Shown: positions 5,695-16,671 of the stretch, one piece after another
Layout of the letters: each line of letters begins with the position of its first letter
How positions within the stretch are numbered: the stretch's first letter is position 1
Assembly: GCA_965198235.1 (NCBI GenBank)
Contig: OZ240248.1
Span: 4,608,001 to 4,672,000 of the forward strand
Reading direction: 5' to 3'
Origin: Candidatus Poribacteria bacterium
GTDB lineage: Bacteria > Poribacteria > WGA-4E > WGA-3G
Length of the DNA stretch: 64,000 nucleotides
Position numbers and translations under genes: made by a program
The notes under the pieces: generated by a model
The model's database searches: none
What the model saw: only the letters and a program-made list of their open reading frames with translations
Told to the model about the DNA's origin: nothing

Positions 5695-8600
5695 GTGAAC
5701 AAAAAGCCCATCCAGAAAAATGTGAGGATGTCTTTTGCCAAAACGCAGGTTCGGACCCCACTCCCGAACCTCATAGAGACCCAAAAACTTGCATATGATG
5801 CCTTCTTACAACAAGATATCCCACCTAATGAACGTCCGGATACTGGCCTCCAAGCGGTGTTTAAGGAAGTATTTCCGATTCGCGATTTTTCGGAGGTTAA
5901 CAGTCTTGAATTTGTCAATTACAGCCTTGGCACACCGAAATATACTCTCCAAGAATGTGTTGCGCGCGGTGTAACATATCAAGTATCCCTTACTGCCCGT
6001 ATTATGCTTGTCCTGCGTGAAGCAGACTCGGATGCAGATGAACCTCACGTTGTGGATATCCGAGAGTCCGATGTATATCTCGGCGAAGTTCCTTTAATGA
6101 CTGAAAATGGCAGCTTCATTGTCAATGGTAGTGAACGTGTGATCGTGAGCCAGCTGCACCGTTCGCCGGGTGTTATTTTTCTTGAAAAGGCATTGCCGAC
6201 GGGACGGCGTACACCGACTGCCCAAATTATTCCCTATCGAGGGGCTTGGGTCGAATTTGAAATAGACACCAAAGATCAGATTTATGTGCGCATTGACAAG
6301 CGTAGAAAACTGCCGGCTACTGTGCTTCTTCGTGCACTCGGTTGGGAGTCGGACGCAGATATCCTGAAGCTTTACGCCAAGACGGAACGACTTGTACTTG
6401 CCGGGTGGCAGGTTACGCATGTAGAAGGACCAGCAAAGAAAATCACATCTGGTGATTTGTTGGATGCTGCGGACTTTCGACAAGCCAGCAGAGACTATCC
6501 TGACCTTGAGGTAGAGAAGAGTTATCGTGTTATAGAAGTAACTGATAAGGACTGCCCACTGGAGATTGGACAAGCACTCACATATAAGAATCGGACGAGC
6601 CTTCGCAGAAAATGGAAGGGCTTTGAAACTGAGCTTCTTCGGCGTGTTGTTGACACCCACAATAGTGGGTGTGAGCTCATTCCCGAACAAGTGCTAACAA
6701 ATTCGGAATACGAAGAGGGGCGTGCCCGCTACGGAAGCAAAGCATTCGCAGCTGAACAGATTTTGTCCCAAGACAGCCAGGAAAGTGTCGGTAGGGTCTG
6801 CGCTGAAGACGTTATCAACCCAGAAACTGGCGAAGTGCTCCTCACAGCGAATACGCTGCTCACCGAAACGGAATTGGAACGTCTCAGTGAGACTGGTGTT
6901 GAGGCACTTACAGTACTGGATGAGGAAGATTGCCAGCACATCCGATTTTTGCGTAATACATTGGAGCGCGACCGACAGGCGGACTATGAGGAACCCTATA
7001 CTTTACAAGATGCCGCACTGCTTGAGATTTTCCGCACGCTGAGACCCGGAGATCCTGCTGGTATAGAGAACGCTCGTAAACACCTTTCATGGTTGCTCTT
7101 TGACCCGCACCGATACGATTTAGGTGTAGTTGGACGGTACAAACTGAATCGAAAATTCCAGAATATTCCCGTTTATGGTGAGCCACCTGAAGAGACTTTG
7201 CGCACGCTCCGTCCCGAAGATATTGCCGCTACGGTAGATTATCTTCTTAAAGTCCACAACGGGATTGCTCCGAAAGACGATCTTGATCATCTCGGTAATC
7301 GCCGCGTACGTGTTATCGGTGAGTTACTCGAAAACCAGTTCCGAATGGGTTTATTCCAGATTCGCAGAACTACGCGCGAACGCTTGAGTACCAACAATGA
7401 TATTGCGAAGGTCGTCCCGTCTTCGCTCATAAATCCGAAACCGCTGATGATGGCACTCCGGGAATTTTTTGGATCGAACCAGCTGTCGCAGTTTATGCAA
7501 CAGATTAATCCGTTGGATGAATTGACGCATAAGCGTCGTATCTCAGCAATTGGTCCAGGTGGGCTTCACCGAGATAGAGCAACGGCAGCCGTTCGGGATG
7601 TACATCGAACGCACTATGGACGTGTCTGCCCCTTGGAGACACCTGAGGGACCATCCATCGGTCTTATCGTTTCTTTGGCGTGTTATGGACGGATAAACCC
7701 TTATGGTTTTATAGAGACCCCTTATCATAAGGTTGAGGACGGTTCGGTGTTGGATCCAGTGGAATATCTGACAGCAGATAGTGAGGATACTGCTTACATT
7801 GCTGCAAAGGCGATCTCGAACGATGCCGAACAAGCTGGAAATGGTGAGGCATCGGGGTTACAAACCCCTCCTACAGAGCAGATGCTGCCTGTACGCAGTG
7901 GGGAGGATGTGCTGTCGCTTCCGATGGAAAAAGTGGACTATATCGGTGTTTCTCCACAGCAGATAGTCGGCATTTCTGCTGCGTTGGTTCCGTTTCTGGA
8001 ACATGAGGACGCAAACCGGGCATTGATGGGTGCTAATCACCAACGTCAGGCTGTGCCGCTTGTCCGTCCAGAAGCACCGCTCGTCGGAACGGGGATGGAA
8101 GCCCCGGCGGCACTGTATTCAGGTGCACTCATCACCGCTAAGCGAGCTGGTACCGTCACAAGTGTTTCCGCCGATGAGATCCTCATATATACTGGCGAAA
8201 CACTTCATCATGACAAGGGTGAGAATACGTTCAGCGAAATGGGCTACGATGTTTACAAACTCCAAACATTCAAACGGAGTAATAGCGGCACCTGTATTCA
8301 CCAGCACCCCATCGTTGCAGTGGGCGATAAAGTTGAAGCCGGACAGGTTATTGTGGATGGCACCTCTACAGAGAGCGGTGAACTCGCTCTTGGGCGGAAT
8401 GTGCTGTGCGCTTATATGCCGTGGGGCGGTCACAATTACGAGGACTCTATCCTGATAAGTGAGACACTCATCAAGGAAGATATCTTCACCTCTATCCACA
8501 TTGAAGAATTTGAAGTGGAGGCACGTGAGACGAAAGTGGGCCCGGAGGAAATCACCCGTGATATTCCGAACGTTAGCGAGCAGCGGCTTACACAACTTGA

Positions 8601-10938
8601 TGAAGAGGGTATTATTCACGTTGGGAGCGTTGTGGGTGCAGGAAGCATCCTCGTCGGAAAAATTACACCGAAAGGTGAAAGTGAATATGGTCCGGAAGAG
8701 AAGCTCCTACGCGCAATCTTTGGTGAAAAAGTCAAAGAAGTAAGGGATGCTTCGACTTATGTACGCCCCGGAGTTGAGGGTGTCGTTATTGATGTAAAAG
8801 TATTCTCCCGTAAGCCGGATGCTGCCTCCCGTCGTGGAGGTTGGGCACAAGGCGACTCAGGGTTATCGATGGCTGACAATTTGCGATATGAATCGAAACG
8901 CAAAGAGATTGAAGAGACTTCGCGTGAGCAGATCGCTTCTATCCGTCGCCGAAAAATCGAAGAGATTCGCAAAACACTCATAGGATGTGAACTTGCTGAT
9001 TCGCTTTACACGGTTAATGGAACTAAAGGTGATACTGACGCTAAACTCTTCGCTAATGCTGGTGATACCCTGACAGCTGAGGTTTTGGACGCTTATATTT
9101 CCGGTTTCACTGCAGATGAGTACCACTTGGTAACCGAAGATACAAACTCTGAAGTTTTTACCGCTGAAGCGTGTTATAGGGTAACAGACGTACCTGAATC
9201 AATTCCTACTATTGTGGTCTATCCTTCGGATTCCTCAGCAGTGCAAGGATACCTTAGCGAAGTGTGCAAACCGATTTTGGGAAGTACTGAGCCATTCTTG
9301 CAGGAAACGGAATCTGTAGATGGGGACTTAGAAGATGCTGATGTTGTGCTTCAGGGTTACGATAACAGTGTGATTGCTATTGCTGTGTGTGAAGACGCTC
9401 ACACTGACGATGAGGATGCTGAAAACGGGTATCATTCCGAGCGTCTGATGGAGATGCTTGCTGCAACAGGAGCACGATTTGGTGTATTGGTACCTGACGG
9501 TGAGCCAGAACCCGATAACTGGGATTTCTATGAACTCGTAGATTTGACCAGCGACTCGCCTCCGACACAAGACTCAGAAGCACGAGTCGCTGATCAAACT
9601 GTGTTGCAACTGTGTGAGCGTTCTGAGTTTGAGACTGGAATTACCACACAACTTGAAGCAACTGGATGCCCTGTCGTTGAGACACAGAGGCTCAACGAGG
9701 AAGAATGGACGAACTTCAGTCAGACTTATCCGGGTTTACAAGCCGAGTTATTTTGGCAAATTAAGGAAGTTTTCGACCCCGCGTGCCCCTTGACCGAAGG
9801 ACAAGAACTCTCCGATACCGACTATCTGCGAATGTCCAGAGATTTTCCTGCACGTCCTATAGCAGCGGGTCAACGACTGGCTGCGGATGAACTGGCATCA
9901 TTTACCCGGACCATCAAGGATTTGAAAATCGACAGCGTCTGGCACATTACCGTTGTTTTTGACCCAGAGTGTACACTGTCTGCTGGAGAATATGTTTCTG
10001 ATGCCGACTATCAAGAGGCACGTAAATCATGTAGCTTGACTTTCTCAGACATCCATGTTACCAATGCCAATGCCAGAGAGCATATTCAGCGTGTTGAAGA
10101 GATGGCGCAAGGCAGGATAACCACTTACACTGAGGAGAAAGAACGAGCACTTCAGCAGTTAGAGATGGGTGATGAGCTAAAACCAGGAGTCATCAAACGC
10201 GTCAAAGTCTATGTCGCAAGCAAGCGTCCGATTTCCGTCGGCGATAAGATGGCGGGCCGCTACGGCAACAAAGGTGTTGTTGCCAAAATTTTGCCTGCTG
10301 AGGATATGCCCTATCTGCCGGATGGTACCCCGGTTGAGTTGGTACTGAACCCGTTAGGTGTGCCCTCTCGAATGAACGTCGGTCAAATCTTGGAAATTCA
10401 TCTCGGATGGGCGTGCCATGAACTCGGTATCCAAGTGGAATCCCCTGTATTTGATGGTGCAACAGAGGGAGAAATCTTTGAAATGCTTGGTAAGACCGAG
10501 CTCCCAGAACGCAGTAAACAGACCGGTAAGAGCATTCTCTTTGATGGTAGAACCGGTGAGGCATTTGCCCAGGAAGTAACGGTGGGTTACGTCTATTTCC
10601 TCAAGCTGAACCACCTTGTTGCTGATAAGATGCATGCTCGCTCAACGGGACCTTATTCTCTTGTTACACAGCAACCGTTGGGAGGCAAGGCACAACACGG
10701 GGGCCAACGGCTCGGTGAGATGGAGGTCTGGGCATTGGAGGCTTATGGTGCAGCCCATACGCTCCAAGAAATGCTCACGCTCAAATCAGATGACGTTCTT
10801 GGTAGAAGAGAGATTTACGAGTCGGTTGTGAAAGGGTTAAATCCTGAACCGCCCGGTACACCGGAATCATTTAAAGTCTTGGTCCGCGAACTCCAAACCC
10901 TTGGACTTCATGTATCCCTCGATAAGGATGAAGAATAG
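5695..10938 (+). CDS. rpoB: DNA-directed RNA polymerase subunit beta with large lineage-specific insertions (1747 aa)
   Basis: [67 protein letters not shown]; GTG start with AGGGAG RBS. Confidence 0.98.
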   Translation: [1747 protein letters not shown]

Positions 10939-10971: not shown

Positions 10972-13900
10972 ATGAACACGGCATTTGACAGCATCTCCAT
11001 AAAGATAGCCTCGCCCGATCAGATTAAAGACGAGTCGAAGCAGACCAGTTGCAAACGTCGGAAGCCCGCCCAAGAAGCGGATGCACCTTTTATCTGCCCC
11101 GAGAAAGGGACATGTAGTTGTGGCGAGGTCAAGAAGGCGGAGACTATTAACTACCGCTCCTTTCGTCCTGAAGCGGAGGGCCTCTTCTGTGAGGCTATCT
11201 TTGGACCACAAAAGGACTGGGAGTGTAACTGTGGTAAGTATAAACGGATTAAACATAAAGGGATGATATGTGACCGCTGTGGTGTTGAAATCACACAACA
11301 GCGTGTTCGCAGAGATCGACTCGGATATATTCAGCTTGCCGCACCTGTCTCTCATATATGGTACTTCAAAGGAATTCCTTCTCGCATCGGCACCTTCTGT
11401 GAACTCTCCTCACGTGATGTTGAGCGTGTGCTCTATTTTGAGGGGTTTATCGTCGTTGAAGTGACTGACCCAGATTGTCCTCTTGAACGTGGGCAGGTGT
11501 TAACCGAGATTGAGTACATAGAACACAGCAACAAGTACGGGGATGGATTTCGGGCTGGCACCGGTGCAGAAGTCATTCGCGAATTACTCAGCGATATTGA
11601 TCTTGAGGCGGAGATAGAGAAGTTAACCACAGAGTTGGAGGAAACAACGAGCCATCAGAAAAAGCTGAAGATCGCCAAACAACTGAAACAGATAGCTGAC
11701 TTTGCAGAAGTTGGTCAGCGGCCCGAGTGGATGATTTTGGATGTTATTCCTGTCATCCCACCAGATTTACGACCTCTTGTTCCGCTTGAAGGTGGACGTT
11801 TTGCTACCAGCGACCTGAACGACCTGTATCGCCGTGTTATCAATCGGAACAACCGACTGCGTAAATTGATACAGCTCCGTTCCCCCGAAGTCATTCTCCG
11901 TAACGAGAAACGGATGTTACAGGAGGCAGTCGACGCATTCTTCGACAATGGACGGCACGGTAGGCGTGTCACCGGTCCGGGTAACCGTCCGCTCAAATCC
12001 CTTGCTGATGTTCTCAAAGGTAAGATTGGGAGGTTCCGTCAGAATCTGCTCGGTAAGCGGGTTGACTACTCTGGACGGAGTGTCATCGTTGTTGGACCTG
12101 AATTGGGGTTGCATCAGTGTGGGATCCCCAAACGGATGGCTGTAGAGTTGTTTAAGCCGTTCATTATTGAGCGACTTCAAGCGTATGGGTATACGCAGAC
12201 AATTAAGCGTGCGAAGCATATTGCTGAACACGTTGATTCCGATTCTCCTGTATGGGAAGTCGTAGAGGAAGTGATTGCGGATCATCCAGTTTTACTCAAT
12301 CGCCCGCCAACTTTGCACCGGCTCGGCATTCAGGCATTTTTGCCTGTCTTGGTAGAGGGCAAGTCGATCCGGATTCCGCCACTCGTCTGTAAAGCGTTTA
12401 ACGCTGATTTTGACGGTGACCAGATGGCAGTCCATGTACCACTCACCGTGGAAGCCCAAGCTGAAGCGAAACTCCTAATGCTCAGCAGTCATAACATTCT
12501 CAAGCCCTCACATGGCGATCCTATCGCTGTTCCGGAGCTTGACATGGTACTCGGACCCAGTTTCCTGACAAAGGTGTTGCCAGAGCACGCTGCGGATGCG
12601 ACACTTCTGCATGATGCTTATACAACAAGCGATCCTTCTGCTTTTGATGCCCTCCGTGAAAAGCCATGGTTCCATCGTCGCTACGCACACCCAGAAGAGG
12701 TGCTTACCGCTCATGCAGCGGGTCAACTTAAACTGCACGACAGCATCCAGCTTTTCCGTGCATCTAATGGGGATGATGGGAAAACCACGGAACCAATTCT
12801 AACGACAGTCGGCAGGGTAATATTTAACCAAGTACTGCCGTCTGGTTTAGAGTGGGAGGATGCAAATTCTCAGCAGCGTATTTCGTTCTTCAATGCTGAA
12901 GCTGGAGGCAGAGAACTGTCTAACCTGATCCACCGTTGTTTCAACGAATTGGGCACACGTGCCACGACTGAAGTGCTTGAGAAAGTACAGAAGCTTGCTT
13001 TCGAGTATGCAACGCTGAGTGGTGTTTCGCCCGGTATCATGGATTACATTACTCCTGAGAATCGCGATGCTTTGGTGAGCAAAGCACAGGCAGAAATTGA
13101 CACCCTCCTTGGCAATGTCACGGCGACCGAGCGCGAAGAACATGAAAACGAGCAGATTCGTATCTGGTTGGATGCGATTACAGCCGTTGAGAACACAATG
13201 TTCTCGATTTTGCCCCAGTTAGAGACCTCTCTCGTTGAGCGCGGTGACCCTCGAAAGATTCATCCGTATGTTGATCCCGATGGGTTAGAGGTACGCGACA
13301 GAACAGTAGAAGGCTTCAGTCCGGTACATATCATGGCAGATAGTGGCGCACGAGCACGGAAGAATCCATTTATGCAAATCAGTGCTGTTATCGGGTTGAA
13401 AGCCAAGCAGAGCGGTGAAATTCTCATTCCGCCGATTACCACCTCTTATCGTGATGGTCTGGACGTACTTGACTACTTCAACTCTACTTATGGATCCCGT
13501 AAGGGTCTCGTGGATACGGCGATGAAAACCGCCGCGTCCGGTTACCTCACTCGAAAGCTTGTGGATGTGGCTCAAGATGTTCGTGTCACTACTGAAGACT
13601 GCAGCACGCTTAATAGCATCCAAAAGTTCGCGACAGAGGGGGGCGACCTTGCTTTTAAGATTAGCGGACGCACTGCTGCCGAGGATATCCTCAATCCAGA
13701 GAGCGGGGGCCTGCTTGTTCCATCGGGTACTGTCATATCGGCGCAGATGGCGGACCAGATTGACGCACTTGGCATAAGAGTGGCGAAAGTGCGCTCTGTG
13801 CTCACGTGCCAAACCGATGATGGAGTCTGCGCAAAATGCTACGGTAACGATTTGACGACGAATGATCTTGTCAATGTTGGCGAAGCTGTGGGCATCATTG

Positions 13901-16671
13901 CTGCACAGTCTATCGGTGAACCGGGTACGCAACTTACTATGCGGACGTTCCACACCGGGGGTGCTGTTGAAGATGTTTCAGAAGCGCGTCAGCGCAGAAT
14001 TTTGTCTAAAGTCAGTGGCACCGTGTATTTCCGAGATTTCCAACCCAGTCGGACGGTCAAAGAAGAGGGCGAGCTCTGGGTCGCAACCGAAAACAGAACG
14101 AATCTTGATGAACCTGCCTACAAGGTTATACGAGTTAACAATCCTCACTGTCCATTGCGAGAGCATGAATTACTCAGTGAGAAGCAGTACATGGAAAACG
14201 CGGAGCGCTATAAAGGTTTTGATACAAAGACGTGGCAGTATCAAGTCACAGCTGTCTTGGATAGCGACTGCGACTTGAATGTGGGGGGGCGACTGTCTCA
14301 GGCAGAATACGTCAAGGCACAGATGGAATATAGCTTCCAGCGATTTGTGACCCCAAAATACCGAGTGGCGCGGGTGCAACATCCTAAGCTTCCATTGACT
14401 GTTGGCACCGAGCTCACTGAAGAAGAGATAGAGCAATTGAGAACTGATATCCGGCAAGGGATTAACGGAGAATGGCATTACTTAGATGCAGAAACAGGCG
14501 AGCGTATTGCTATTGAAAGCCTTACAGCAGTTTCAGGTAATGCTTCTTCTGAGCGTCCGAACGGTTCCTCTGATAATCCCGATACTGCGAATGCGTCTGG
14601 GCGAGATGCGAGTTTTAATCGTGTGTATTGTATAACCGAAATAGATAAGCAGACAAGCAAAGACTTCGGATTTAAGGTAGGAGACGAAGTTGCACCAGAA
14701 GAAATTGCTCCGTTGCTTAATCCATTTGAGATGGAGATAAAGCCCGTTTACGTTGTACATACAGAGGTTGCTGAATTTACAGTTAGTCAGACATTAACGT
14801 CCCGTGAGTACGAGGACGCTCGCACAGAGTATCAGCAACTTGAACGCGCATTTAAAGTTGAAAAACAGGATGATGAACGACACTATGTGACAGCTGTGTA
14901 TCATCCCGAATGTCCTTTTGAAGTGGGTGAAGAATTGAGCGAGGCAGCCTTAACCCGTGCACGCAAGCGATTTCCAGGTTTTGATGCACCGCCCCTACGA
15001 CACCGTGTAACGCAGGTGCATCATCTGGACTGCAGTCTCAAACCGAGAGATCTACTTACTGAGAGTGAGAAAAAACAATTCGATGAGAGTTACCCTGGAT
15101 TCGTCACTTCTCAAAGTAAGAGCACCGCGGGTGGCTTTGCAGGAGAACGGTTATACCGTGTTACATCGGTCAATCATCCTGACTGCCCATTAGAAGTTGA
15201 TGGTCTCTTGACGCAAAAGGAATCATCTGCAAACCGCCGACACTACAAGGGTTTTGAAGTTGCACGTCATTATGAAGTGACACACATTGAAGATGAAACG
15301 ACAGCGTTAAGTGTCGGTCAGCGTCTCACCGAGATCGAGTATAAAGCACTCCGCAAGACGGATGCTTCGTTACCTGAGAAAGTCAAAGGACTCTATCATG
15401 TCATTAGCGTCCATCACCCTGAATTGAACCTGGAGGTTGGTGCTGAATTGAGTGAAGACGAGTATAAGACGTCCCATCGCCAGTTCAAAGGATTTGATGT
15501 TGAGCTGGTTTACCAGGTAACTGTGGATACGCGGGATGTTGATGAACTACTTGAGGTTGGGACTATTCTACCCTCGAAGGAATACCGGGCTCTTGAGAAA
15601 GCAAACTTGCGGGTGACCCATACCGTCACCGAGGTTCATCATCCGAATTGCAAGTACGCTGTCGGCGACGAATTGTCCGAGGAAGTATACAATGAGGCAG
15701 CGAGACGGTATCCCGGATTCGAGATCGATGAATTGTCATTGCGGATGCGTATTGAGGTAGAAACATCGGATGGGAGTCGGGTGCCGCATGTCATTCCTAC
15801 GGGTTACTCCTTCTCTTTGACAGAGGGTGATAGCATTCAGAAGGGAGAAACGCTGGCAGAGCTCTATGAGAGGACAGCGAACCGTGACATTGTTGCTGGT
15901 ATTCCGCGTGTCACTGAATTGTTTGAAGCGCGCCGCCCGAAACGCGGTGAAGCCGCAGAAATCGCTGAGATTGAAGGTTACGTCCAATCTGCAGGCACGA
16001 AGTCAGGTATTCCTACCTACCGCATTGAGCACGAGGGATATCAGAGTCGTCTCTATCAAATACCTGATGAGAAGCGACGCGTCGCTGAAGGCGATTGGGT
16101 GAATGCCGGTGAACCCCTCACCGATGGTTATCTCAATCCGCACGATATTTTGAGTATCGGACGTACGACTATTGAAGGTGTATCGGTTGAGGGTGAAGAG
16201 GCGGTCTGGTCATATCTCGTCGATGAAGTCCAGAAAGTCTACGGCAAGGGGACTATCAACGATAAACACGTTGAGGCAATCGTCCGACAGATGTTGACTA
16301 AGATTCGTATCACCGAGCCGGGCGACACAAACTTCTACCCGAACGATGAAGTGCAACGCAAGCAATTTGAACGCGTTAACAGTGAGATTGAGGAAAAAGG
16401 TGGAACGCCTGCCTCGGGTGAACCGATTCTCCAGAGCATAAGTAAAGCCTCCTTGAGTACAGATAGCTTCATCTCAGCTGCATCCTTCCAGCAGACGACG
16501 AAGGTGCTAACGGATGCTGCTGTCGGTGGGCAAACCGATAGACTCTTTGGGTTGAAGGAAAACGTTATTCTCGGTAGACTCATACCAGCGGGAAGTGGAT
16601 TCTCCAGTTTCCAGGACTTAGAGATATCCTCCATTGAACCAGAAATAGGCGAAGCTGGTGATGACGATTAA
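10972..16671 (+). CDS. rpoC: DNA-directed RNA polymerase subunit beta' with a 641-aa trigger-loop insertion (1899 aa)
   Basis: CNCGKYK/CDRC Zn ribbon, LLGKRVDYSGRSVI, catalytic NADFDGDQMAVH, GEPGTQLTMRTFHTGG, SAASFQQT, GLKENVILGRLIPAG. Confidence 0.98.
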   Translation: MNTAFDSISIKIASPDQIKDESKQTSCKRRKPAQEADAPFICPEKGTCSCGEVKKAETINYRSFRPEAEGLFCEAIFGPQKDWECNCGKYKRIKHKGMICDRCGVEITQQRVRRDRLGYIQLAAPVSHIWYFKGIPSRIGTFCELSSRDVERVLYFEGFIVVEVTDPDCPLERGQVLTEIEYIEHSNKYGDGFRAGTGAEVIRELLSDIDLEAEIEKLTTELEETTSHQKKLKIAKQLKQIADFAEVGQRPEWMILDVIPVIPPDLRPLVPLEGGRFATSDLNDLYRRVINRNNRLRKLIQLRSPEVILRNEKRMLQEAVDAFFDNGRHGRRVTGPGNRPLKSLADVLKGKIGRFRQNLLGKRVDYSGRSVIVVGPELGLHQCGIPKRMAVELFKPFIIERLQAYGYTQTIKRAKHIAEHVDSDSPVWEVVEEVIADHPVLLNRPPTLHRLGIQAFLPVLVEGKSIRIPPLVCKAFNADFDGDQMAVHVPLTVEAQAEAKLLMLSSHNILKPSHGDPIAVPELDMVLGPSFLTKVLPEHAADATLLHDAYTTSDPSAFDALREKPWFHRRYAHPEEVLTAHAAGQLKLHDSIQLFRASNGDDGKTTEPILTTVGRVIFNQVLPSGLEWEDANSQQRISFFNAEAGGRELSNLIHRCFNELGTRATTEVLEKVQKLAFEYATLSGVSPGIMDYITPENRDALVSKAQAEIDTLLGNVTATEREEHENEQIRIWLDAITAVENTMFSILPQLETSLVERGDPRKIHPYVDPDGLEVRDRTVEGFSPVHIMADSGARARKNPFMQISAVIGLKAKQSGEILIPPITTSYRDGLDVLDYFNSTYGSRKGLVDTAMKTAASGYLTRKLVDVAQDVRVTTEDCSTLNSIQKFATEGGDLAFKISGRTAAEDILNPESGGLLVPSGTVISAQMADQIDALGIRVAKVRSVLTCQTDDGVCAKCYGNDLTTNDLVNVGEAVGIIAAQSIGEPGTQLTMRTFHTGGAVEDVSEARQRRILSKVSGTVYFRDFQPSRTVKEEGELWVATENRTNLDEPAYKVIRVNNPHCPLREHELLSEKQYMENAERYKGFDTKTWQYQVTAVLDSDCDLNVGGRLSQAEYVKAQMEYSFQRFVTPKYRVARVQHPKLPLTVGTELTEEEIEQLRTDIRQGINGEWHYLDAETGERIAIESLTAVSGNASSERPNGSSDNPDTANASGRDASFNRVYCITEIDKQTSKDFGFKVGDEVAPEEIAPLLNPFEMEIKPVYVVHTEVAEFTVSQTLTSREYEDARTEYQQLERAFKVEKQDDERHYVTAVYHPECPFEVGEELSEAALTRARKRFPGFDAPPLRHRVTQVHHLDCSLKPRDLLTESEKKQFDESYPGFVTSQSKSTAGGFAGERLYRVTSVNHPDCPLEVDGLLTQKESSANRRHYKGFEVARHYEVTHIEDETTALSVGQRLTEIEYKALRKTDASLPEKVKGLYHVISVHHPELNLEVGAELSEDEYKTSHRQFKGFDVELVYQVTVDTRDVDELLEVGTILPSKEYRALEKANLRVTHTVTEVHHPNCKYAVGDELSEEVYNEAARRYPGFEIDELSLRMRIEVETSDGSRVPHVIPTGYSFSLTEGDSIQKGETLAELYERTANRDIVAGIPRVTELFEARRPKRGEAAEIAEIEGYVQSAGTKSGIPTYRIEHEGYQSRLYQIPDEKRRVAEGDWVNAGEPLTDGYLNPHDILSIGRTTIEGVSVEGEEAVWSYLVDEVQKVYGKGTINDKHVEAIVRQMLTKIRITEPGDTNFYPNDEVQRKQFERVNSEIEEKGGTPASGEPILQSISKASLSTDSFISAASFQQTTKVLTDAAVGGQTDRLFGLKENVILGRLIPAGSGFSSFQDLEISSIEPEIGEAGDDD

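Follow-up and report, generated by a model that had tools for sequence, protein, structure and literature searches.

An inactivated, acidic HSDR_N_2-derived nuclease-fold domain nested in the beta-i9 insert of Poribacteria RNA polymerase

We report a PD-(D/E)xK nuclease-fold domain, derived from the HSDR_N_2 family and stripped of its catalytic motif, inside the beta-i9 (SI2) insert of the RNA polymerase beta subunit of a Poribacteria bacterium, a sponge symbiont. The domain lies in a window of 64,000 nucleotides (positions 4,608,001 to 4,672,000 of contig OZ240248.1), whose positions are used throughout. The analyses below establish homology, motif loss, an acidity peculiar to this copy, purifying selection, retention across the genus and position on the beta-i9 arm, and on these grounds we propose that the beta-i9 copy persists as a disarmed, acidified pseudo-nuclease that offers a surface for docking or spacing and has no enzymatic role, a reading to which we assign a probability of roughly 0.55. 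The prevailing view is that the lineage-specific inserts found in bacterial RNA polymerase consist almost exclusively of BBM2/BEAN and SBHM/HABAS modules. Full-text literature searches returned no description of a nuclease-fold domain in beta-i9, and the accessible main text of the 2024 survey of BEAN and HABAS domains contains 0 occurrences of the terms nuclease, restriction or Poribacteria.

Architecture of the enlarged beta-i9 insert

The rpoB gene (5695..10938, + strand) encodes a beta subunit of 1747 aa, identified from its open reading frame and from Pfam Rpb2 domains 1, 2, 3, 45, 6 and 7. The 452-aa lineage-specific insert that the earlier note had placed between VKVFSR and GDELKPGV is exact on the translation of 8812..10167 (+ strand; beta residues 1040-1491), where E. 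coli has 105 aa. Since its flanks align on either side of the E. coli beta-i9 site (window beta 961-1041 with E. coli beta 858-938 before the insert, and 1465-1560 with 1012-1107 after it), the insert corresponds to beta-i9/SI2, and it falls, as beta-i9 does, between shared regions b13 and b14 (E. coli 938-1042). Its length sets it apart, with 428-467 aa in 24 sequences of the genus against the 105-143 aa given for 307 sequences in a 2010 paper (PMC2939025).

The arm itself retains the organization of E. coli beta-i9 (dispensable region II, PDB 3tbi), with two long ladder helices at the same site and additional material solely in the distal hook. Ladder helix 1 (insert residues 16-56; 8857..8979, + strand) is predicted in an AlphaFold2 model of the whole insert with pLDDT of about 83-90 and agrees with the beta-i9 of sister genera, and ladder helix 2 (residues 419-451; 10066..10164, + strand) is a predicted helix that aligns to E. 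coli beta 1012-1038. The modelled ladder superposes on E. coli flap-beta-i9 (3tbi_B residues 941-1038) with VIA-align Z 8.9 and rmsd 2.3 A over 98 residues, 3tbi_B being one among many matches of the whole insert, which are dominated by generic helical hairpins. The E. coli insert shares with ours an acidic surface and the confinement of extra material to the distal hook, and the beta-i9 site is described as permissive and flexible, with insertions only in the hook, in the same paper (PMC2939025). Unlike that of E. coli, the Poribacteria hook carries three additional folded modules, one of them the nuclease-fold domain.

The ancestral hook's N-terminal portion (residues 57-94; 8980..9093, + strand) is conserved in cassette-free sister genera, in which the hook reads ...AGDTVTAELLDT|PG... 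at the cassette junction, and the cassette is flanked on both sides by hook residues conserved in those genera. Predicted secondary structure and the comparison with sister genera thus bear out the nesting that had been proposed, namely a cassette within the hook, within the beta-i9 ladder, within beta. The insert sequence is present in RNA libraries, whose contigs span it without joints. An intein or intron was considered and rejected, given these continuous contigs, the absence of a Hint domain in Pfam scans and junctions that vary among the 24 sequences.

The inserted cassette comprises ~313 aa (insert residues about 95-407; 9094..10032, + strand), was not found in four rpoB genes of sister genera and is collinear with the N-terminal half of an 851-aa protein, P0003 (BLASTP E 3e-32). 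It opens with a beta-strand meander (residues 98-136; 9103..9219, + strand; predicted strands 99-107, 116-126 and 133-136) bearing two strands of the type GFTxDEY / FTAEAxYRV; strands of the same kind (FTxEExYKV) also precede HSDR_N in P0003, in P0048 and in the second cassette of genome G019. The meander is followed by one HSDR_N_2-type PD-(D/E)xK domain (residues 137-285, beta 1176-1324; 9220..9666, + strand), which hhalign and a profile search of the window's own genome support, and by two BBM2-like repeat units (residues 286-348, 9667..9855, and residues 349-410, 9856..10041, both + strand), assigned from internal repetition, similarity to the beta-i4 site and repeating predicted secondary structure.

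BBM2/BEAN modules are insertional domains of RNA polymerase beta, with a bracket-like alpha-beta-beta fold, that Iyer is said to have described in 2004. The units of the cassette resemble the window's own repeats at the beta-i4 site (beta 238-345; E 4e-9), and in relatives they match repeats both upstream in the rpoB frame and in a neighbouring frame of ~1,900-2,000 aa, the size of beta-prime (E 1e-4 to 6e-6). Further repeat copies downstream of the domain had been noted, and units 2 and 3 are indeed 40% identical (E 5e-16). The whole-insert model, in which the units were folded together with the rest of the insert, predicts a repeating strand-helix-strand-strand-helix pattern, and neither Foldseek against the PDB nor VIA-align returned a structural match for the units from that model. 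By the same predicted secondary structure the segment following the domain opens the next complete unit, and the suggestion that the domain splits one repeat is not confirmed. BEAN domains outside RNA polymerase are already on record in the accessible text of PMC11515920. What distinguishes the cassette repeats from known BBM2/BEAN modules is that they travel with a nuclease-fold domain as one unit.

Homology and inactivation of the nuclease-fold domain

The relationship of the domain to the HSDR_N_2 / PD-(D/E)xK family is firm at the level of sequence comparison. An hhalign alignment of 47 rpoB-only domains with 26 stand-alone Poribacteria PF13588 proteins covers 108 columns (Prob 98.6, E 1e-15). 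Searched against 1.84 billion representatives, the rpoB-only profile returned 78 matches at E<=1e-3, and PF13588 was found at E<=1e-3 in 27 of the 30 of these that were scanned with Pfam. In the opposite direction, an HMM of the stand-alone domains matches all 47 rpoB domains, and when the window's own genome is searched in six frames with the stand-alone profile, three matches emerge, including rpoB at 9325-9534 (E 7.3e-6). The domain also matches P0004 by BLASTP (E 4e-10), and P0004 scores 36.5 bits against PF13588. The sequence motifs quoted in the earlier note are found in the translation, and the resemblance to HsdR N-terminal domains from which it argued is true homology, with PD-(D/E)xK/HSDR_N profile matches obtained from both search directions.

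Direct searches returned little. PF13588 recognizes none of the 47 rpoB domains at E<=1, Pfam scans of the whole insert and whole beta gave no match to the domain, and NCBIfam and PADLOC scans of insert or domain gave none either. A single-sequence search of the PDB produced 0 matches, a profile search only two unrelated ones (E 0.33 and 0.47), and Foldseek against the PDB no match at E<=1e-3 for either the domain model or the whole-insert model. The predicted order of elements, alpha-beta-beta-beta-alpha-beta-beta (model pLDDT 72.7-79.8), fits the PD-(D/E)xK core. The best VIA-align neighbours of the model are restriction-endonuclease-like, with flavodoxin-like folds at Z 5-6, all Z values lying within the range that the tool calls common. 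Best or near-best among them are DUF820/Uma2-type proteins (1wdj, 3ot2) and type IIG or type I nuclease domains (BpuSI 3s1s, DrdV 7lo5, HsdR fragment 3h1t), with Z 6.6 for 1wdj, 6.4 for 3s1s and 5.2, 5.0 and 4.7 among the other three, all in the common alpha/beta range; unlike the type IIG and type I domains, the rpoB domain has neither helicase or methylase context nor the catalytic motif. An ESM Atlas 'named' search, with scores <=0.79 that serve as a lead only, lists Mrr_cat, PDDEXK_3, PDDEXK_11 and Flu_PA in several rows. In 7 of the 47 members a partial PP-binding match appears (profile positions 6-45 of 67; best E 2e-5); these matches were dismissed as a chance motif in an acidic extension that the window's copy does not have.

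Replacement of the catalytic positions, as the earlier note had read them, holds across the 47 unique rpoB sequences. The first catalytic Asp is kept as Asp177 (9340..9342, + strand; D in 42/47 rpoB and 26/26 stand-alone sequences). In place of E-x-K the window has V192-C193-E194 (9385..9393, + strand), the Lys being retained in 19/47 and the Glu in none (V 21, M 15, L 9, I 2), against E and K in 26/26 stand-alone proteins. R211...E214-M215 (9442..9456, + strand) likewise replaces Q...S-Y, with Gln in 21/47 and Ser and Tyr each in 0/47 rpoB sequences; the stand-alone proteins have Q in 25/26, S in 26/26 and Y in 26/26. The D...(D/E)xK set of an active PD-(D/E)xK nuclease is thus incomplete in the rpoB domain. 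The stand-alone proteins (PF13588), which NCBI names 'type I restriction enzyme HsdR N-terminal domain-containing protein', have a homologous core and share the motifs ADxxL, xIAIAxx, LxxxLxAT.xxFG, W.FYE and FE with the rpoB copy, but they have preserved D, ExK, Q and SY (25-26 of 26) and are near neutral, whereas the rpoB copy is without E, S and Y in 47/47 and strongly acidic.

Distribution and origin of the cassette

Of 65 genomes in the genus, 62 have matches to the cassette in the rpoB frame, with that frame kept open although insert identity falls to 51-85%; the three lacking a match are 83-84% complete. The comparison with sister genomes proposed in the earlier note was informative: the cassette was not found in four rpoB genes from sister genera of the same family, whose beta-i9 measures 142-189 aa, a distribution that points to acquisition in the ancestor of one Poribacteria genus.

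A collinear cassette of FTxEE strands, HSDR_N and BBM2-like repeats also sits at a second site in beta in two Poribacteria lineages, with nuclease motifs intact, and in membrane-TPR proteins. The first domain of the second cassette, in which the motifs are intact, spans rpoB residues 873-983 in G019 and residues 498-611 in P0118. These occurrences argue for insertion of a ready-made cassette, which probably moved as a unit. The domain tree unites the beta-i9 copies in a single clade (SH-aLRT 99), which groups with degenerate second domains of other cassettes at SH-aLRT 91 only; because of its long branches and only 115 columns, we did not use this tree to infer the direction of transfer. Third-position GC content is 0.383 in the domain and 0.46-0.48 in the core, a signal too weak for foreign origin to be argued from it.

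The earlier note's picture of a domain captured by RNA polymerase therefore survives in part. Derivation from HSDR_N_2/PD-(D/E)xK, catalytic loss and nesting stand, but stepwise, Russian-doll accretion around a split repeat inside rpoB is not supported as it was put, given the same collinear cassette at the second beta site and in membrane-TPR proteins. Nor is an origin from a defence gene shown, the nearest relatives being stand-alone or fused HSDR_N_2 proteins and not HsdR subunits; their fusion partners are OB fold, DprA/ShosA-like, tubulin-like, HHH and TPR domains, and only one fusion class resembles a known defence protein.

A bolder, speculative view, which we consider rather unlikely, would treat the HSDR_N-plus-BBM2 cassette as a mobile module at the level of domains, with at least three in-frame entries (beta-i9, second beta site, membrane-TPR protein). 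The motif-intact polymerases of the two lineages might then couple transcription to DNA cleavage in defence or repair, and the beta-i9 copy would be a domesticated acidic remnant acting as decoy or regulator of such nucleases.

Charge, constraint and possible function

In the reading that we favour, a ready-made cassette of ~313 aa would have entered the distal hook of the beta-i9 arm in the ancestor of the genus. Its nuclease-fold domain would have remained folded but become disarmed, the metal-binding Glu giving way to a hydrophobic residue and the conserved Ser-Tyr being lost, while almost all of its Lys and Arg were replaced by Asp and Glu. Tethering to the polymerase a module that binds and cuts DNA would presumably do harm, and selection may for that reason have removed both catalysis and DNA affinity. 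The remnant would be a surface module, acidic and repelling nucleic acids, carried by a flexible arm about 65 A long; most plausibly it gives lineage-specific factors a surface for docking or spacing. The analogy we favour is SI1, a lineage-specific insert that serves as a docking surface for PcrA/UvrD and binds PcrA according to the accessible part of PMC8318588, although SI1 is another insert with another fold.

The charge of the domain is specific to this copy. The richness in Asp and Glu that the earlier note had remarked on amounts to 23.5% D/E and 3.4% K/R, against 13.2% and 10.6% in the window's 25 long ORFs. Net charge is about -30 (range -37 to -22 in 47 sequences) compared with -3.2 in stand-alone domains, and within the same HMM envelope the beta-i9 copies carry -19 to -25 against +4 to -11 in other cassette copies. 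Purifying selection acts on the domain, with dN/dS of 0.30 compared with 0.16 in the BBM2 units and 0.03-0.05 in the beta core, values taken from 128 of 528 pairs that are not independent; relative to the core, constraint on the domain is relaxed about 7-10-fold.

The cassette could instead be a neutral passenger in a permissive surface loop, lasting because clean in-frame loss is rare and selected only against misfolding and residual nuclease activity or DNA binding. We regard this as possible, though unlikely. The accessible text of PMC2939025 reports E. coli beta-i9 to withstand both large insertions and deletion in vitro; the domain has the highest dN/dS of all parts of the gene; its loops vary in length (1 to 18 and 9 to 18 residues) and in some species accept a short palindromic element; and its conserved residues are mostly fold determinants common to the stand-alone family, which fits constraint on folding alone. 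A mere passenger sits less easily with a frame kept open in nearly the whole genus despite the divergence of the insert, with a dN/dS well under 1, and with acidity held in 47/47 sequences even in loops that turn over.

DNA mimics such as Ocr, ArdA and sigma region 1.1 space surface carboxylates like DNA phosphates. An acidic pseudo-nuclease derived from a DNA-binding fold, with a net charge of -30 on about 150 aa and containing the 60-aa segment that is the most negative in beta, might in the same manner occupy the polymerase's DNA-binding surfaces or trap DNA-binding proteins such as nucleases and phage factors, and the arm that carries it is long and flexible in the available account of beta-i9 (PMC2939025). 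We find this doubtful: according to the same partial source, E. coli beta-i9 and beta-i4 are acidic too and are not known mimics, and the modelled position of beta-i9 lies away from nucleic acids, and the acidity also fits simple neutralisation of a DNA-binding module.

Many PD-(D/E)xK nucleases act as dimers. The dead domain might accordingly pair with active stand-alone HSDR_N_2 proteins (those with OB-fold, DprA/ShosA-like or tubulin-like fusions) and recruit them to the transcribing polymerase; such paralogues are numerous in the genus, with two in the window's own genome, which has an HSDR_N_2 protein of 196 aa. We judge this distinctly improbable, since rpoB and stand-alone forms diverge in the Ser-Tyr motif and at many surface positions; a complex prediction for the rpoB domain with the stand-alone HSDR_N_2 protein of its own genome gave no answer (score 0.00), which counts neither way. 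Residual nuclease activity through other residues is very improbable, for while the first Asp is frequent, the Lys occasional and acidic residues that could bind metal are many, the Glu position is hydrophobic in 47/47 and a Lys/Arg content of 3-4% is poor for DNA binding. Chance resemblance to HsdR-N domains, which the failed direct searches (Pfam, NCBIfam, PADLOC, PDB sequence search, Foldseek) might suggest, is barely credible against profile, BLASTP and hhalign evidence that agrees from both search directions.

As a disarmed surface module, the beta-i9 copy would represent a rare case in which an essential enzyme takes in and disarms a DNA-cutting module. Its history can be read, since the source family occurs in the same genomes, the insertion point is precise, and the beta-i9 copy alone has lost catalysis and reversed its charge, with sister copies that still look active. 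The Poribacteria polymerase may thus offer a system for asking by what means a dangerous domain, once captured, is tolerated and neutralised in an essential enzyme, and what purpose beta-i9 serves.

The beta-i9 insert of rpoB and its distribution

The RNA polymerase beta subunit is encoded by rpoB, a 1747-aa open reading frame (5695-10938, + strand) in which Pfam detects all Rpb2 domains, followed downstream by rpoC (1899 aa; 10972-16671). Exactly 452 residues, encoded by 8812-10167, separate VKVFSR from GDELKPGV and, since the flanks align to E. coli beta 858-938 and 1012-1107, this segment corresponds to beta-i9, a lineage-specific insert (SI2, E. coli 938-1042). As described by Opalka et al. 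2010 (PMC2939025), beta-i9 consists of two long 'ladder' helices and a connecting distal hook, spans 105-143 aa across 307 sequences with all length variation confined to the hook, and constitutes a flexible, acidic element with a reach of ~65 Å, located away from nucleic acids in that paper's model. The segment in the window is a beta-i9 by site and ladder, but it is 3-4 times larger and falls far beyond that range. In its treatment of beta inserts, a 2024 survey of RNA polymerase insertional domains assigns them to the BEAN class and describes 'type 4*' forms that carry additional multidomain insertions; its main text contains no occurrence of nuclease, restriction or Poribacteria (PMC11515920). 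Full-text literature searches for the fusion of a nuclease-type domain within RNA polymerase beta returned nothing relevant.

Four genomes from three sister genera of the same family possess a beta-i9 of 142-189 aa, comprising only the ladder and a small hook. Comparison with them sets the insertion point between ...TAE(V/L)LD(A/T) and (PG)xxLSxIxVT, thereby delimiting an inserted cassette at insert residues about 95-407, made up of a strand meander, a nested nuclease-fold domain and two BBM2-like repeats. Of 24 other genus genomes sampled in one draw, 23 contain the insert; a second draw gave 62 of 65 (by row count), the three genomes without a match being 83-84% complete, and a query with the insert found no match in 16 genomes from three other families of the order. 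Among species genomes there are 36 related loci, at 51-84% identity. The host organism is uncultivated; in four metatranscriptome libraries from one sponge study, 70-94% of sampled words from window positions 8600-10400 were recovered, with DNA carry-over a possible contributor. Contigs from run X1 span the insert (30/30 bins) in pieces covering 8600-9275 and 9246-10116, each differing by one letter, and the metatranscriptome contigs over the insert show no joints and no indels.

A short palindromic element with core GGGGTTACAAACCCC lies at 7852-7871 in rpoB (beta about residue 720), where its in-frame translation is (E)SGLQTPPT; the genome holds 42 copies (0 for the reversed control), and both other species and contigs from RNA libraries have it within the insert, at loop positions that vary (strain variants at about 9312, 9330 and 9392). 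It is akin to the in-frame palindromic elements of Rickettsia. In rpoC, Rpb1 domain 5 is spread across residues 829-1786, as would be expected if it held a very large insertion, and the beta-prime-sized frames (~1,900-2,000 aa) adjoining rpoB in relatives contain BBM2-like repeats resembling those of the beta-i9 cassette.

Homology, catalytic loss and acidity of the nested domain

The earlier note had likened the nested domain (9220-9666) to the PD-(D/E)xK domain at the N-terminus of HsdR. Pfam reports no family in the insert and matches 0 of 47 unique rpoB domain sequences, NCBIfam and PADLOC scans of the insert and domain gave no match, and PDB sequence searches gave no relevant one. When relatives' whole genomes were searched with the insert, matches also arose outside rpoB. 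One of these, the 188-aa protein P0004, aligns to the insert (E 4e-10), fits PF13588 (HSDR_N_2) over its gathering score (E 5.8e-9) and reads ADIVL...IAIAECK...QLQSYLCATGGEFGV, the very pattern to which the earlier note had compared the domain. The profile match sought for the domain was obtained with hhalign, by comparing an alignment made only from the 47 rpoB domains with one of 26 stand-alone Poribacteria PF13588 proteins (Prob 98.6, E 1e-15, 108 columns). The rpoB-only profile returned 78 matches at E<=1e-3 from 1.84 billion representative proteins; PF13588 was identified (E<=1e-3) in 27 of the 30 scanned with Pfam, the others being two rpoB fragments and the 938-aa protein P0048, which is recognised only by an HMM built here from stand-alone domains. 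This HMM matches all 47 rpoB domains, and the window's own genome, in six-frame translation, yields three matches to the stand-alone profile, including 9325-9534 at E 7.3e-6. That genome encodes two stand-alone HSDR_N_2 copies, and the source subfamily is expanded in the genus (P0050-P0113; L014:407-1906(-); L081:1369-1959(-)), with fusion partners such as an XseA-type OB fold plus coiled coil, DprA/ShosA-like, Tubulin_2, HHH or TPR domains.

The predicted structure appears consistent with a PD-(D/E)xK assignment, but is not decisive. AlphaFold2 models from rpoB-only alignments, with a pLDDT of 72.7 when the domain is modelled and 79.8 when the insert is modelled in full, predict the order alpha-beta-beta-beta-alpha-beta-beta, and neither model has a Foldseek match in the PDB at E<=1e-3. 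For the domain model, VIA-align lists TT1808 (1wdj; Z 6.6, rmsd 3.6 Å, 109 residues) and the nuclease domain of BpuSI (3s1s; Z 6.4, rmsd 3.7 Å, 110 residues) at the top, Z values under 8 being common; the 50 rows include further restriction-endonuclease-like chains (9y1l, Z 5.7; 3ijm, 5.3; 3ot2, 5.2; 7lo5, 5.0; 3h1t HsdR, 4.7), and flavodoxin-like folds score 5-6.

Stand-alone proteins conserve D, E, K, S and Y in 26/26 sequences and Q in 25/26. Among the 47 rpoB sequences the first catalytic Asp persists in 42, whereas the ExK Glu (V in 21, M in 15, L in 9, I in 2) and the Ser and Tyr of the QLxSYL helix are absent from all. Lys is retained in 19 (otherwise E in 24, A in 4) and Gln in 21. The suggestion that catalytic positions had been replaced is confirmed. 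We term the nested domain a pseudo-nuclease derived from the PF13588 family and, functionally, no member of it: it constitutes a derived homologue that scores below the family HMM threshold and is missing the catalytic residues. We regard it as almost certain that it is a dead HSDR_N-derived domain.

The domain is also, as first described, very rich in Asp and Glu, with 23.5% D/E and 3.4% K/R for a net charge of -30 (range -37 to -22), against -3.2 and 12% K/R in the stand-alone domain and 13.2% D/E and 10.6% K/R in the window's 25 long ORFs. Within a common HMM envelope, beta-i9 copies carry -19 to -25 and other cassette copies +4 to -11, so acidification is specific to the beta-i9 copy. Separately, an acidic ~30-aa extension (...DSDEDEN..FEELGISS...) precedes the domain in L019:1149-1712(-) and six other aligned members and is absent from the window's clade; its partial PP-binding (PF00550) matches in 7/47 members, one over the gathering score (25.1 bits, positions 6-45 of 67), probably reflect a chance motif.

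Probable mobility of the cassette

The cassette also occurs elsewhere. P0003 (851 aa; L013:2562-5117, - strand), encoded by one member of the genus, and its relative P0048 share an architecture of FTxEExYKV strands, a motif-intact HSDR_N domain, a degenerate second one and 3-4 BBM2-like repeats, followed by a transmembrane helix, a coiled coil and TPR repeats; such repeats therefore exist outside RNA polymerase in the genus. The N-terminal half of P0003 aligns collinearly to residues 98-445 of the insert (E 3e-32). In another genus member, G019, the 2352-aa rpoB (L015:1719-8777, - strand), for which the database's precomputed Pfam list includes PF13588, contains a second cassette at residues about 700-1250, located after ...GFIETPYRKVE, with the two-domain arrangement of P0003 and 38% identity to it. 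An independent rpoB on another contig, P0118, has the same cassette (50% identity across it), which rules out an assembly artefact. In both, the cassette lies after ...GFIETPYRKVE/HEV, and its first HSDR_N domain keeps D, E-C/F-K (ECK in G019), Q and S-Y; next come another, degenerate domain and BBM2-like repeats. A short-domain tree places the beta-i9 copies beside the degenerate second domains (SH-aLRT 91, long branches). This distribution across beta-i9, a second beta site and P0003/P0048 suggests that strands, nuclease-fold domain and repeats moved together, and the collinear cassettes argue against the stepwise 'Russian-doll' accretion inside beta-i9 that had been put forward.

The further repeats noted after the domain are borne out: the two downstream units are clear repeats of each other and resemble the window's own beta-i4-site repeats. 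Because every unit starts with a CP(V/I) segment in predicted secondary structure, the segment following the domain would be the start of a whole unit, rather than the second half of a broken repeat; in the order of the model's elements, the preceding strands come next to a helix of the ancestral hook.

Retention and possible role

Nei-Gojobori dN/dS, computed over the 128 of 528 non-independent pairs with core dS of 0.05-1 and all regions estimable, rises from 0.03-0.05 in the beta core to 0.11 in the ladder helices, 0.16 in the BBM2-like units, 0.22 in the strand meander and 0.30 in the nuclease-fold domain. The domain evolves under constraint and, within a single genus, is old. Its GC3 is 0.383, compared to 0.46-0.48 for the rpoB core.

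We favor, at slightly better than even odds (about 0.55), a disarmed pseudo-nuclease held as a folded, acidic surface module on the beta-i9 arm. That the domain is a neutral passenger is the most serious competitor, though an unlikely one: its dN/dS is the highest of the regions compared, and it is nonetheless constrained. A role as DNA mimic, raised by the earlier note, would suit the acidity and is rather doubtful for an arm modelled away from nucleic acids. Recruitment of active paralogues, which the genus does encode, is improbable; persisting nuclease activity is highly improbable, with Asp mostly kept and Glu gone throughout; and a chance resemblance to HSDR_N, despite the empty Pfam scans, is scarcely credible beside the profile matches.

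For the surface module, we count homology, motif loss, charge reversal, constraint, retention and position as established, and infer the remaining steps. Fusion of a nuclease and DNA-binding module to the polymerase would have been harmful, and the module may have been neutralised by exchanging the catalytic Glu for a hydrophobic residue and basic residues for acidic ones. SI1, as described in PMC8318588, binds the PcrA Tudor domain and illustrates a lineage-specific insert serving as a docking site. The neutralised domain would now be retained as a folded, nucleic-acid-repelling module on a mobile arm, probably providing a docking or spacing surface.
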